Below are positions 11,957 to 16,437 of a DNA stretch of 64,000 nucleotides, piece after piece. Where the stretch lies: contig CAWIAD010000001.1 in the NCBI GenBank assembly GCA_963833985.1, positions 1,984,001 through 2,048,000 on the forward strand, read 5' to 3'. Under the pieces are notes generated by a model. That model was not told the DNA's origin and made no database searches. It saw only the letters and a program-made list of their open reading frames with translations. A program made the translations under genes and the position numbers. Numbering within the stretch: position 1 is the first letter of the stretch; the number at the start of each line of letters is the position of its first letter. This stretch comes from an uncultured Planctomycetaceae bacterium. GTDB lineage: Bacteria > Planctomycetota > Planctomycetia > Isosphaerales > Isosphaeraceae.

Positions 11957-12096
11957 TGAGCAGATCCGCAGAAGTCTTTTGGCAGGATTGCAGTTCGCTT
12001 GCCCGGGGGCTGAGGGCCCTGCCTGACCGCTCTCCTTGTGGGGTACGATTCCAATCGTGCCATTCCTGGTCCATCAGATAGAAGAAGTGACACCAT
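11957..12096. repeat. Left half of a REP-containing, inverted-repeat-bounded element (family A) interrupted by the group II intron
   Basis: Aligns with 53054-53222; contains GTGGGGTACGATTCCAATCGTGCCA. Confidence 0.85.
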
Positions 12097-12260
12097 GTAG
12101 AGTCGAGGTGTGGCGCGGTGGGCTCGAGTCGATGGCTCGGCTGGGCCTCGTTTCCACACCCCGCTCATCAAACTGGACGGGCGGTTTTCCCGCATCCAGC
12201 TTTCGGACAAGGCTTGTCTCATCGGTTGAGTTCACACGTTCGCTCACGAAACCATCGCGG

Positions 12261-12860
12261 CTAGGTTCGTTGCAGCTGGTAAAGATGCAACTCCTGGTGC
12301 AGGTATCTGTCAGGGTAGCGTCTGAGCCCCTGACCCGGCACCTTGAACTTCGCACACAACCACTGACGTACCCGGTAGCGGACGTGGTGGTTGACTTGGC
12401 GATAGGCTGGGCTCACCGTTCCGATGCGAAAATAGTTGGACCAACCGCGTAACTTGCGATTGATCCGACCAATCTGCATCTCGACGTCCTGTCCAGTGGT
12501 CTGGCGCGTCGTCATCGCACTGATCTCGCTGCACAGCCGAATGATCTTCTTCCGCGATGGGCGTGACCCTATGTAGGATCGGCCCGTTCGTCGGTCGTAG
12601 TTCCGGCCGAGGGTATAACCCAGAAAGTCGAACGTCTCCTCAGGCAGGTGGCACAGCCGCGTCTTGGTCTCGTTCACCGTTAACTTCAGCCTGGACATCA
12701 TCTTCCGCATCACCGTCATGGCCTCTTCGGCCGTGCCGCGACAGCAGATGACGAAGTCGTCCGCATAGTTGACGATTCGCGCGACCAGACGCCGCTCGTG
12801 TCCACCAGTCTTCCATCCCTTCACAAATCGTCGCATGTAGATGTTGGACAACAATGGTGA
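12261..12860 (-). pseudogene. ltrA: Group II intron RT/maturase, C-terminal half (YADD and domain X; no En domain)
   Basis: SPLLSNIYM...IVNYADDFVI...FDFLGY...LRGWSNYF; separated from its N-half by the insertion. Confidence 0.92.
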
Positions 12861-14514
12861 GATCACGCCCCCAACAATGTTGCGAACTACGTTGTTGGGG
12901 GCCTTTCTCAAAAGGGGACGGACTGACCCGATACACGATGCGGACCTCCTGCTCGTCGATCTCGACCTTCTTCACCAAGGCCCGAACCACCTCCCGTCGC
13001 GTGGCCCAGTCCGGCTCTTGCAACCCTTGCGAGACGCGACGTGCGAACTCCTCCAACTGACCGATCACCAGTCGCAATTCCGCCTCTTGGGCGGCCTCGC
13101 CGATTCGTTGTCGATGCTCCTCCGCCAATCTCGAGAGGCGCGTCCTTGCCGCCGAGATCCGGGGCTCGAACTCCGATTTGTCGAGCAACCCGTCGCCGTA
13201 AGCATCGATTAATCGAGAAATCATCTTTTTCACATTATTTATCAATTTGCCGAGATGCTCCACCTCCTGATTCGGCCCGCCCTGGGCACCCTGCAGCCGC
13301 CGCTCGTACTCCTCCCGGACCCGCTCCGGCTCGGACAGGAGACCTCGTAAGTCCTCCCAGACGGCAGCGTCAAGGATATCGGTGCGGATCTGCTTGTTCC
13401 AGCAGAGGCGCTGCCCGCCGAAACGATAGGCGTCAGAGCCCGTGCAACGGTAGTACGCGTAGCGGACCCTACCCTTGCCCTCGAACGCGGCTCGGCTCGT
13501 CGGCTTGCCGTAGCAGCCGTAGCCGCAGCGCTTGCAGACGACCAGGCCCTGGAGCAGATATCGGCCACCGCCGGGCCGGTCGCGACGGCGTTGCCGGTTC
13601 TCTTCAAGCTGGGCCTGGACAGCCAGGAAGAGGTCTTCGCTCACCAGCCCGGGGACTTCAATGAAGATTTGATCTTCCGAGGATGTATCAACCCGTGAGA
13701 CCGGTCGCCGGGAGTGTTCGGGGCGGCCTCGCTGCGGGCGGAGGCGTTGAGGTTTGAACTCACCTGAGCGCGTCTTGCCGAAGGCCGCGGTCCCCTTGTA
13801 GGCAGGGTTCTTGAGGATCAACCAGACCGTCGCGCGATCCCAGGCCGATTTCCCGGTCCGCGTCGGGATACTGTCGCGCCGGAGGCGTCGGCACACCTCG
13901 CCGATCGAGCACCGTTCCTGACCCACCCATTCGAAGATCTTCCGCACGACCCGGGACTCTTCAGCGAGGACCTGATAACGCGCCTCGCCACCTCCCTCGT
14001 GCTTGCCGATGTAACGGTAGCCGTACGGCGCGCCGCTGAGGACGTTGACCGAACCGCGGCGGGCGGCGTGTTGCTTGCCCCTGCGGCAACGCTCCATGAT
14101 CTTGGCGCGCTCGTATTCCGCGATCATTCCCTGGACCTGAAGCAGCAGGTCGGCTTCCGGACTGCGGCCGACGGGGTTGCGCAAGAAGACGACCTCGACA
14201 CCGCACCGGATAAGTTCCTCAAGGATCAAGACCTGATAGGCATACTTGCGTGAAAGTCGATCCGGATCGAGCATATAGAGGCGGTCGATGGCTCCAGCGG
14301 CGGCTTGGTCCCGAAGTCGCTCGAGTGCCGGTCGGGCCAGGATGTAACCGCTGACGCCGTCGTCCACGAAGTGCAGTTCGGGCTCGCATTCCAAGCCATC
14401 AGTGGCGATCCGCTGAGTGACCGCCTCGAGCTGGCTGGCGATCGTGTCCTCCTTCTCCTGCTGCTCCCCCGAAACCCGGGCGTAGAGCGCCACGCGGAGA
14501 TTGTCCGTGATCAT
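12640..14514 (-). CDS. Large serine recombinase (resolvase, recombinase, Zn-ribbon and coiled-coil domains)
   Basis: ALYARVS (catalytic Ser15), DDGVSG, RPALERL, DRLSRK, AEYER, GAPYGY, ILKNPAYKG, LLQGLVVCKRCG...YYRC. The ORF runs past the element end into intron sequence. Confidence 0.95.
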   Translation of the reverse strand: MITDNLRVALYARVSGEQQEKEDTIASQLEAVTQRIATDGLECEPELHFVDDGVSGYILARPALERLRDQAAAGAIDRLYMLDPDRLSRKYAYQVLILEELIRCGVEVVFLRNPVGRSPEADLLLQVQGMIAEYERAKIMERCRRGKQHAARRGSVNVLSGAPYGYRYIGKHEGGGEARYQVLAEESRVVRKIFEWVGQERCSIGEVCRRLRRDSIPTRTGKSAWDRATVWLILKNPAYKGTAAFGKTRSGEFKPQRLRPQRGRPEHSRRPVSRVDTSSEDQIFIEVPGLVSEDLFLAVQAQLEENRQRRRDRPGGGRYLLQGLVVCKRCGYGCYGKPTSRAAFEGKGRVRYAYYRCTGSDAYRFGGQRLCWNKQIRTDILDAAVWEDLRGLLSEPERVREEYERRLQGAQGGPNQEVEHLGKLINNVKKMISRLIDAYGDGLLDKSEFEPRISAARTRLSRLAEEHRQRIGEAAQEAELRLVIGQLEEFARRVSQGLQEPDWATRREVVRALVKKVEIDEQEVRIVYRVSPSPFEKGPQQRSSQHCWGRDLTIVVQHLHATICEGMEDWWTRAASGRANRQLCGRLRHLLSRHGRRGHDGDAEDDVQAEVNGERDQDAAVPPA

Positions 14515-14879
14515 GGTTTGTCAAACCCCCCCGACCTTGGACTGGATAGTGTGGACCACAGTCGCGTGGTTGCGGCTGGGTCGCGGCCGATCCAGGCGCT
14601 GCGAAACGACCGGGATCAAGACCTGATATGCACGCGCGATCAATTGCTCCTGAAGCCGAGTGAACTCGAAGTGGCGGGTGACAGGAGGACTGAACGTGGG
14701 CCTCCGTGGGGACGTGATCATGTCGACTCCTCCTCTCCGAGAGCGCGGCCGCCAGCCTGCCTTGGATCGGGATCGAGTCGGGGCTGCCATCCGTGCCCGT
14801 ACTTCGGTCGAAGCCGCGATCTGGAAATGACAGAGTCAGGAATCAGGGACGATTTTGCAACATTGTTGGGGGCGTGATC
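12861..14879 (-). mobile_element. Minimal large-serine-recombinase element with 23-bp perfect terminal inverted repeats and GATC core
   Basis: GATCACGCCCCCAACAATGTTGC (12861-12883) and GCAACATTGTTGGGGGCGTGATC (14857-14879); removal rejoins the RT in frame. Confidence 0.93.
14521..14721 (-). CDS. Small basic protein upstream of the recombinase (candidate accessory/directionality factor)
   Basis: GGAGGAG RBS before ATG at 14721; 66 aa MITSPRRP...RAYQVLIPVV...; ends 6 nt before the recombinase start. Confidence 0.6.
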   Translation of the reverse strand: MITSPRRPTFSPPVTRHFEFTRLQEQLIARAYQVLIPVVSQRLDRPRPSRNHATVVHTIQSKVGGV

Positions 14880-15574
14880 GGTGCACCTTGCGGTGTACCC
14901 ATCCCCTGGTCTTTATTCCGGGTCGTTCGATGGCGCTGCCCCTTCCCGTCGGTTTCTTCCACCGGTGTTTCCAGCCACATCTTGATCAGCCGCAGGACGC
15001 GACCGTCGCTGATGCGCCGTGACGCCGATTTCATTAACTCGGAATGGGGTATGCTATCGAAATATCCAGATAAGTCCGCGTCCACCACCTCGGTGTGCCC
15101 CGTCTTGAGCAGCCGTTCGACTTCGCGGACGGCGTCCAGGGCGCTGCGCTCCGGGCGGTAGGCGTGTTGTTCCGGCTCCAGGTCGGCCTCGAAGATCGGC
15201 TCCAAGACCAGCACCGCAGCCATCTGCACCACACGATCCTTGATGCAAGGAATGCCCAGCGGCCTTTGCTTGCCGTCCCCTTTGGGGATGTACACGCGCC
15301 GCACCGCCTGGGGTTGATACGTCTCCTTACGAAGTTGTTCCGCCAGTTCGTCCAGCCATCGTTCCTTCCCGGACGCCTCGATGTCGGCGAAACTCTGGCC
15401 GTCGATCCCCGGCGCGCCGCCGTTGGCACGGCAGCGTTCGTAGGCGAATCCCAGAACGTCACGTCGATAAATCTTGTCGTACAGGACGTAGAACCGATAG
15501 TTGGGCGCGTTCTTCGCTTTGGTGTGCAACGCCGTCTGCAACTTCCCGACCTTCAGTGGAGGTGATAGACTCAC
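14876..15574 (-). pseudogene. ltrA: Group II intron RT/maturase, N-terminal half (RT0-RT4)
   Basis: RFYVLYDKI, ANGGAPGIDG, YIPKGDGKQRPLGIP, VVDADLSGYFDSIPH, GTPQGAPI then the element junction. Confidence 0.92.
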
Positions 15575-16105
15575 GCCAATCTCCCGGCTGTCTGCCGCTT
15601 GTTGCGTTGACCTTGAACCAAGGCCCCTTCCCTCGACCGGAGTTACCCGGCGTCGACGGTACTACGGGCCTCTCCGCCACCCCAGGCAGCCCGGCCGGTC
15701 CCTCGCGGGCGTCCGGTTGAGGGTCACGCGCCCTCACCGCTTGGGGTTTCCCGTGTTGTGTTGATCTCCGTGTGCCGACATGCCGTCGTCAATACCCCGG
15801 TGGCCCGCTGGGTTCTGATCGCTCGTGGGGCGGCCTATTCCAACCGTTTCCCTTTCATCCCCAGCGACGGCGGCCTTCCCCATATTCCAGCAAGGTCGGC
15901 GACCACATTGGACTTTTCGAGGCCTGCTCAACGTTCACTCGCGTTACGGCCTGTCGGTTCGCTGCATCGCCAAGCGACACATCTGTCTCGAAGGCTCCGA
16001 CGGTTTCGTCTCCTCCACCGCCGCTCCGATAGCTACCGGCTGGAGCGACCCAGTTGCCGGGTGGGAGTTACACCCACTGAAGACCAACACCTTTCCACGG
16101 CGCAC

Positions 16106-16238
16106 GGGAGTCGTGTCCCACGAGGTGATTGAATTGACACGATTGGGTATCGTGGCCCACAAGGAGCGGCCTGCCGGTCATCCAGGATCGCATCAACCTG
16201 CTGAATGCCTGTCAAAGAACGATTGCGAACCTGCTTAG
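16106..16238. repeat. Right half of the family A element interrupted by the intron
   Basis: Aligns with 53223-53313 (GAGCGGCCT.CCGGTCATCCAGGATCGCATCAACCT...GATTGCGAACCTG); carries two reverse REP units. Confidence 0.85.
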
Positions 16239-16437
16239 ACTTTCTTTCAAGTTGTGCCGATGAGCCGAGTCTCGCCGGAGAAATCGGTAACACCGGCATT
16301 TTCTCTCCAGCCAGCCGAGCCACCGCGCCGATTCAACGGGTGGCATGGAGCGCGAAAGCTTCTCCGTTCCGCGTTTTGCAGGCAGGAACCTGCATGCAAC
16401 CGCGGTCAGAATGAATTCGGGGAGGGCGAGCCTCGCG

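Follow-up and report, generated by a model that had tools for sequence, protein, structure and literature searches.

What is a gene for a large serine recombinase doing inside the reverse transcriptase (RT) gene of a group II intron? This question is raised by a 64,000-nucleotide stretch of DNA from an uncultured Planctomycetaceae bacterium, hereafter the window (GenBank assembly GCA_963833985.1, contig CAWIAD010000001.1, positions 1,984,001 to 2,048,000). At 12861..14879 on the minus strand of the window, a unit of 2019 bp splits such an RT gene in two, and 11 copies of this unit in the genome end at exactly these bases. The unit is very probably a mobile element of insertion sequence (IS) size that moves by site-specific recombination, rather than by transposase chemistry, and that targets a motif of group II intron RTs. 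It has the attributes of an insertion sequence: it is shorter than 2.5 kb (2019 bp), carries two genes and no cargo, is bounded by 23-bp inverted repeats and occurs in 11–12 copies. A sequence-only reading of the window had described a cargo-free 2019-bp unit with a recombinase and a 66-aa open reading frame (ORF). The extent, both genes and the lack of cargo held up, as the element contains only the recombinase and a small conserved gene; however, the recombinase ORF continues past the element end, and the small ORF can be read as 66 or 89 aa.

The interrupted gene lies in an intron at 12097..16105 on the minus strand, with its 5′ GTGCG at 16105 and its 3′ end at 12097. Without the insertion, the intron measures ~1994 nt, and its boundaries are the points where the 11 copies stop aligning. 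It is a group II intron by its ribozyme domains (Rfam RF02003 at 15939-16079, 98.9 bits, and RF00029 at 12122-12204, 41.2 bits), its RVT_1/GIIM ORF and its 5′ GTGCG. The N-terminal half of the RT gene (14880..15574, minus strand) comprises 233 codons, reaches ..GTPQGAP-I and matches RVT_1 positions 1-127. The C-terminal half (12261..12860, minus strand) comprises 199 codons with SPLLSNIYM.., YADD and GIIM, and matches RVT_1 positions 121-205. The genome, 10.16 Mb in two contigs (C1 and C2), also holds two naturally empty copies of the intron (~C2:1392549 and C2:2153514). Both encode a continuous 432-aa RT with ..GTPQGAPISPLLS.. and YADD, which is the protein that the sequence-only reading had expected deletion of the element to restore. 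Their first 233 residues are identical to the N-terminal half in the window, and in the copy at ~C2:1392549, for which this comparison was made, the 199 C-terminal residues are identical as well.

The 11 full copies of the element are 2019-2020 bp long, share ~100% identity and have at most three internal differences from the window copy. The element end pattern matched the genome 23 times, against 0 matches for a reversed-pattern control. A twelfth copy is truncated by the start of contig C2, and its end is joined to an RT flank. Nine of the 11 full copies occupy the identical RT codon, seven in the orientation of the window and two inverted. The remaining two lie elsewhere; one of them (L011) is decayed, with a 1-nt insertion and one core base different, and the flanks of the two gave no Pfam family above cut-off and a single HNH_3 match below it. 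The same RT site also holds an old remnant (C2:4627760-4628157), a deleted relative that is 81% identical to the element in intron DNA that is 94-97% identical. This remnant is an older, separate arrival. By a strict motif scan, the sole further intact site is an unrelated RT at C2:4726262, which is unoccupied and has an intact ..APQGGVLSPLISN.. motif with the core CT; it is a possible natural test of core or half-site requirements.

The ends of the element indicate how it is joined to its target. The left terminal inverted repeat (12861..12883, plus strand) lies at the 3′ end of the recombinase gene and contains an end motif that recurs in relatives, and the right one (14857..14879, plus strand) lies at the 5′ end of the element operon. 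Each would provide one half-site of attP. The repeat is perfect over 23 nt, as previously claimed and as borne out by repeat analysis and reading of the sequence, and it extends to 26 nt at 96%. Joined to each other, the left and right ends form a perfect 42-bp palindrome with AT at its centre, which agrees with the attP that had been predicted. The same reading had placed a GATC at each junction. GATC is indeed present there, but at L007, one of the two copies outside RT genes, the junctions read ..C AT C.. and ..G AT G.., and their common part is AT alone. As only AT is shared at L007, the net insertion consists of the 2013-bp element body (12864-14876, between the AT cores at 12862-12863 and 14877-14878) plus one 2-bp core, and the exchanged core is AT, not GATC. 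The G and C of GATC are a chance agreement of target and element. The proposed 2-bp AT crossover fits L007, and the sequences at L007 and at the single-copy empty sites point to exchange of a 2-bp core without target-site duplication. A DDE-type transposon with a 4-bp GATC duplication was rejected, since no such transposase is encoded and only AT is shared at L007. In the RT frame, the element end ..GGGGGCGTG-AT reads G-G-V-I and resembles the RT-side half-site ..GGnGGnGTG-AT, so that the element half-site mimics the target. CTTGCGG is present at L007 too, with the spacing from the core that it has at the RT site.

A third copy of the end motif, inverted and internal, forms a sub-terminal hairpin at 12867..12902 (plus strand; 14 nt at 93%, 8-nt loop) within the last recombinase codons. 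Folding of the 62-nt element end gave -22.8 kcal/mol, and the hairpin is shared with the related elements L040 and L044. In the last 60 nt of two distant members (L057 and L064), a GC-rich hairpin with a T-run, resembling a terminator, overlaps the terminal repeat at the 3′ end of the recombinase gene. Its counterpart in the window is the hairpin at 12867-12902, made from the inner repeat copy itself. A sigma-70 scan of the element gave no promoter-like site, and the one terminator-like site found in it was not above shuffle level.

The in-element part of the recombinase gene (12862..14514, minus strand) comprises 551 codons. The protein contains the Pfam domains Resolvase (PF00239, residues 8-155, 102 bits), Recombinase (PF07508, 70 bits) and Zn_ribbon_recom (PF13408, 40 bits), and its R13-V14-S15 is invariant among 36 relatives. 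In an AlphaFold2 (AF2) model with a mean predicted local distance difference test (pLDDT) of 78.7, the catalytic, recombinase and zinc domains adopt their usual arrangement with a coiled-coil insertion, formed by long helices (396-495) between elements of the zinc domain. The catalytic domain with its serine nucleophile and the combination of Recombinase, zinc-ribbon and coiled-coil parts place the enzyme among the large serine recombinases. Sequence matches to solved structures are distant (phiC31 integrase, SPbeta YokA and TP901-1 at E = 1e-8 to 1e-6), and TnpX matches in the catalytic domain (E = 6.3e-5). The best whole-length NCBIfam matches are the CcrB, CcrC and XisF models, with scores far below their equivalog cut-offs (103.4 against 900, 86.4 against 900 and 101.6 against 375, respectively), and membership of the IS607 family was likewise rejected (NF033518, 26.3 bits against a cut-off of 110).

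Relatives of this recombinase show that the target is a property of the family and not of this genome only. Among 8000 scored candidates, 7999 reached E <= 1e-20, and the 120 best were 83-100% identical. The homologues are 538 to 923 aa long; this spread arises because the ORF continues beyond the element into whatever DNA adjoins it, which makes the tails variable. These tails reveal the DNA next to the element: 105 of the 120 closest homologues could be analysed, and 88 of the 105 fit the RT site (51 in the same orientation, 37 in the opposite one), as compared to 207 of 20,800 shuffles (1%). A scan of species-representative genomes found 548 relatives, from which 79 loci were kept for analysis. 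They derive from Planctomycetota, Chloroflexota, Acidobacteriota, Alpha-, Beta- and Gammaproteobacteria, Spirochaetales and others, many of them on contigs of ~2-3 kb. A phylum-wide genome search with the recombinase had yielded only one of 400 other genomes at E <= 1e-30; this sample missed carriers, as shown by the wider scan. The relatives are units of ~1.9-2.0 kb bounded by the same kind of terminal inverted repeats. A motif scan at their expected ends found the RT motif ..PQGxx / SP[LI]L.. at 50 of the 79 loci, against 1 of 273 displaced control stretches. The sequence-only reading had staked its case on enrichment of relatives at the group II RT motif, and the loci and tails both show it.

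The 50 loci with the RT motif comprise 17 insertions in the same orientation, 17 in the opposite orientation, 4 with chimeric flanks and 12 with the motif on one side only; a further locus, L077, also lies in an RT gene according to Pfam. In each of the 34 complete junction pairs, the element interrupts the codon that precedes Ser-Pro. The occupied RT sequences are diverse (GTPQGGVI, GTPQGAPI, GVPQGGNL, GCPQGSPL and others) and come from several phyla. One metagenome-assembled genome contains elements (L037, L058 and L038) that are 96-97% identical to that of the window, and their sites are two different RT genes and a sulfatase gene. The core dinucleotides at the 34 junction pairs were AT/AT in 13, CT/CT in nine and GT/GT in one. 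Integration in either orientation, as proposed from the palindromic attP, is apparent from the ratios of 7:2 in this genome and 17:17 in other genomes. A non-symmetric core would fix the orientation, whereas an AT core with palindromic 42-bp joined ends would not, and the presence of both orientations fits the latter.

The chimeric flanks (L043, L048, L050 and L088) have the same RT half on both sides in inverted order, which at L043 takes the form of a 275-bp inverted duplication. This suggests that copies of the element in different introns recombined with each other, by inversion or by exchange. A sister clade (L093, L097 and L098), whose recombinase is ~51% identical and whose ends read ATGACC.., lies in both orientations at an apparent single motif of IS256/Mutator-family transposase genes (Transposase_mut). 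The target of the family may have shifted between genes of different kinds of mobile element. Two other members adjoin mobile-element genes, namely an IS200 Y1 transposase (L070) and an IS3-type integrase gene (L068).

Beside the recombinase lies a small conserved gene (14524..14721, minus strand; 66 aa), whose stop codon (14521-14523) is 7 nt before the recombinase ATG; the alternative 89-aa reading starts at 14790. A small ORF with the same motif, ending just before the recombinase start, was found at 57 of the 79 loci by an automatic rule and was seen by eye in others. In an alignment of 34 members, the core V.V.FEP.RL....L..AY..lvP is retained down to ~17% overall identity; Y32 is invariant, and R22 and P37 are almost invariant. 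The protein matched no family in Pfam, NCBIfam or PHROGs. A predicted complex with the recombinase scored 0.67 (0.66-0.72 in three runs), and the best of three controls scored 0.00; at least 80% of contacts agreed between runs, and the pLDDT of the partner was at least 59. Of the solved complexes, 116 of 157 reach the mark for this score, as do 2 of 215 mismatched pairs; with custom alignments, these counts are approximate. In the prediction, residues 9-38 of the small protein contact recombinase residues 376-406 and 490-536, which on the AF2 model map to both ends of the coiled-coil insertion and, in the zinc domain, to the last helix and strands. Directionality factors are reported to bind the integrase at the junction of DNA-binding domain 2 (DBD2) and the coiled coil (PMC12286644), and a second study agrees in outline (PMC11722253). 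As the predicted contacts coincide with this junction, we consider the small gene a candidate recombination directionality factor (RDF). It weighs against this assignment that a passing complex prediction is no binding measurement and can reflect likeness to solved complexes. The element also contains a 20-nt direct repeat (95%; 14223-14242 and 14613-14632) of which both copies encode the peptide ..YQVLI.., one in the catalytic domain of the recombinase (residues ~91-97, partly invariant) and one in the conserved helix of the small protein. This double occurrence is either chance or a hint of mimicry.

Together, these features suggest the following cycle, in which the circle, the exact position of cleavage, the excision step and the roles of the small protein and of the C-terminal extension described below are inferred. 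The recombinase would bind the two identical end half-sites (CACGCC...), which in an excised circle would be joined to form the palindromic attP. Recombination of attP with attB would take place at the 2-bp core, attB being the DNA that encodes G-x-P-Q-G-x-x-(I/L/V)-S-P-L-L of group II intron RTs, and the cut would fall in the first two bases of the codon that precedes Ser-Pro. As the core (AT) and the arms are symmetric, the element could enter in either orientation. Insertion splits the RT gene. Precise excision would restore it, and the small protein, bound as a directionality factor at the junction of the zinc domain and the coiled coil, would probably assist in this step.

Several observations weigh against this explanation or limit it. 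First, 29 of the 79 loci (28 when L077 is assigned to an RT by Pfam) and 17 of the 105 tails lie away from the RT motif. RT specificity is a strong preference, not an absolute one. Second, 15 of the 79 recombinase matches are frameshifted or contain stops, indicating decay. Third, the core dinucleotides of the two junctions disagree in 11 of the 34 pairs, mostly at the first base. Classical serine-integrase chemistry does not predict such discordant cores, which would reflect either mismatch tolerance or later exchange of flanks between copies; chimeric flanks are indeed present at four loci. Fourth, inversion in place could be the source of the second orientation. Finally, soil and rhizosphere metagenome contigs contained no circle junction or reliable excision joint (the best contained 0.47 of the sampled words). 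On 12600-15150, two of these contigs match parts of the element with 0 differences and bridge its junctions (X1, 12751-12902; X3, 14732-14980); they may stem from the very sample that yielded the genome and hence provide no independent support. Five metagenome joints that skip the element have short sides (20-37 letters) at <95% likeness, and we read them as RT genes of other introns.

The copies in this genome call for caution in counting sites as integrations. At window position 12846, 16 bp from the core AT, all seven copies in the same orientation have a G, whereas the two empty and the two inverted copies have a T. Because this linked single nucleotide polymorphism (SNP) lets the seven copies descend from one integration, nine occupied sites do not equal nine integrations. 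The seven may instead have spread by intron retrohoming with the element as a passenger or by gene conversion, and independent arrivals in RT genes of this genome, of which we count at least two to three (those in the same orientation, the inverted ones and the old remnant), may number no more than that. That most copies here arose by retrohoming of an occupied intron, with the element as domain IV cargo and RT supplied in trans, or by gene conversion of empty copies, is a serious possibility, if one that we hold to be rather short of probable. From targetron work, group II introns are known to accept cargo in domain IV and to function with RT supplied in trans, and the two copies with an intact RT are possible suppliers. 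The intron SNPs, with the exception of one column, fit the seven copies as a clade. However, the element SNP at position 1169 and the intron SNP at alignment column 389 occur in all four combinations among the copies, and the histories of element and intron are therefore not strictly linked. Two inverted copies, two copies outside introns and the 81% identical relative at the same site likewise do not follow from passive spread. With nine variable sites inside the intron and two inside the element, retrohoming and independent integration are weakly resolved. Passive spread concerns copy number in this genome, and it is compatible with the target specificity of the family.

It is improbable that the element is instead retained as a domesticated switch, beneficial to the host or the intron, for reversible control of intron mobility. 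In favour of such a switch, the exact RT would be regained on excision, a predicted directionality-factor-like partner is present, and of the 11 intron copies that are assembled in full only two have an intact RT, a twelfth copy being truncated at the end of a contig. However, multiple near-identical copies, insertions at non-RT sites, presence in many phyla and decayed copies form the pattern of a selfish element, and no regulatory input was found, the sigma-70 scan of the element having given no promoter-like site. Still less likely is an invertible segment of the Hin/Gin type, in which the recombinase merely flips the DNA between the inverted repeats in place. It is true that a serine recombinase gene lies between inverted repeats, that either orientation is found at one and the same site and that the symmetric AT core would make inversion mechanistically possible, but the enzyme is large, with zinc and coiled-coil domains, and not a small invertase, and identical copies at 11 places, including non-intron sites, as well as natural empty sites, are at odds with this explanation. 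Chance landing in the RT gene, at a GATC, of a recombinase with broad targets is hardly credible: other sites do account for two of the 11 copies in this genome, for 29 of the 79 loci and for 17 of the 105 tails, and one of these sites is the sulfatase gene, but the RT motif marks 50 of the 79 loci as compared to 1 of the 273 controls, and 88 of the 105 tails as compared to 1% of shuffles, and every one of the 34 complete junctions hits the same codon in RT genes that differ in sequence.

The recombinase frame contains no stop before the element end and runs 73 codons into the flank, to position 12640 in RT DNA, to give a 624-aa ORF. The same holds for relatives: the frame reaches the element end without a stop in 26 of the 28 members analysed, and the other two have premature internal stops. 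When the ends were joined in silico through the core, the recombinase frame remained open for 111-234 nt in 24 of the 28 members; two further members reach 15-21 nt. In the window, this putative C-terminal extension (14721..14876, minus strand) consists of 52 codons at the 5′ end of the element that are in frame across the circle junction. Its TGA stop (14718-14720) shares bases with the small-gene ATG, and at least nine of the 28 members have this ATGA overlap. The peptide after the junction, ..NNVAK...SR..LRP.YG.GF.GAPL, is conserved across phyla and past the part constrained by the inverted repeat. In 12 planctomycete members, nt 24-108 of this stretch vary at 19 of 29 third codon positions as compared to 19 of 56 first and second positions, a codon bias that is absent over nt 109-156. 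From these sequence patterns, the final ~36-52 recombinase codons appear to lie at the opposite end of the element and to be joined to the rest only in the circle. As the element ends divide the gene, a complete recombinase gene would exist only in the excised circle.

This arrangement allows a tentative and rather unlikely extension of our reading, in which reconstitution of the gene sets the direction of recombination without outside regulation, and the element multiplies by riding the retrohoming of the intron that it has disabled. The full-length enzyme with its extension (..SR..LRP.YG.GF..) would then be made from the excised circle only. An integrated copy would produce an enzyme with a junk tail, which would favour excision, and the circle would produce the complete enzyme, which would favour integration. 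In the circle, the stop codon of the recombinase would overlap the start of the directionality-factor-like gene.

How does this element compare to known systems? In mechanism, its nearest counterparts are the clostridial transposons with TnpX or TndX and the serine integrases of phages and islands. In the clostridial transposons Tn4451/Tn4453 (TnpX) and Tn5397 (TndX), a large serine recombinase is the sole 'transposase', and they excise as circles and re-insert at a 2-bp core without target duplication. They are 6-21 kb long, carry resistance or conjugation genes, have a GA core and use looser targets. The element shares with them the large serine recombinase as its sole mobility enzyme, the 2-bp core and the lack of target duplication. 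Unlike these transposons, it is 2 kb long and free of cargo, has palindromic joined ends, a small partner gene and a split gene, and aims at one protein-coding motif of another mobile element. With the serine integrases of phages and islands and their RDFs (phiC31, SPbeta SprA/YokA with SprB/YotN, and TP901-1), it has in common the domain architecture, distant sequence matches, the predicted position of a small partner at the DBD2-coiled-coil junction and a precise, frame-restoring integration. Some phage and island elements with such integrases interrupt a host gene that is restored on excision. The element differs from them in that it has no phage or island cargo and reaches 11-12 copies per genome. 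Its attP is palindromic with a symmetric core, so that polarity is lost, and its target is a retroelement gene of varying sequence, with cores that vary within the family (AT, CT and GT). SCCmec CcrB/CcrC and cyanobacterial XisF of the fdxN element are the best whole-length matches, and XisF also restores an interrupted gene.

Two further groups resemble the element in size or in habit. The IS607-family serine transposons are alike in IS size, in the use of a serine recombinase and in the lack of target duplication; IS607 TnpA is reported to be a small recombinase whose domains are ordered differently, with terminal inverted repeats absent and little choice of target (PMC4058570, PMC6188088). 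Insertion sequences in repetitive extragenic palindromic (REP) sequences, IS1202-family elements at dif/xrs and the IS110-family ISPpu9 in REPs also choose a conserved, repeated and dispensable target. These use DDE or DEDD transposases or bridge RNAs, whereas the element described here employs a protein-guided large serine recombinase that reads a coding motif. Full-text searches, which left subscription journals largely outside their coverage, gave no description of such an element. The family appears to constitute a class of bacterial mobile DNA that is very widespread and as yet undescribed. The element is a parasite of another mobile element and a clear case of hyperparasitism. As only two of ~12 intron copies are left with an intact RT, it may limit the spread of the intron. 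Large serine recombinases are sought after as tools for genome engineering, and this family offers a compact palindromic attP, a natural series of attB variants, varying core dinucleotides and a tiny candidate directionality factor. The split recombinase gene, if functional, would be a new way to couple the form of an enzyme to the integrated or excised state of the element.

The surroundings of the intron are themselves repetitive. The ~95-130 bp on each side of its insertion site (window 12000-12096 and 16106-16240) recur, free of the intron, at many places in the genome at 85-96% identity. One intron copy with an inverted element (C2:2147541-2148825) bears a further insertion of ~1.3 kb in its 3′ part. 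Both contigs begin inside an intron/element pair (C1:1-815 and C2:1-1379), and as both start within a copy, the assembly probably breaks on this repeat.

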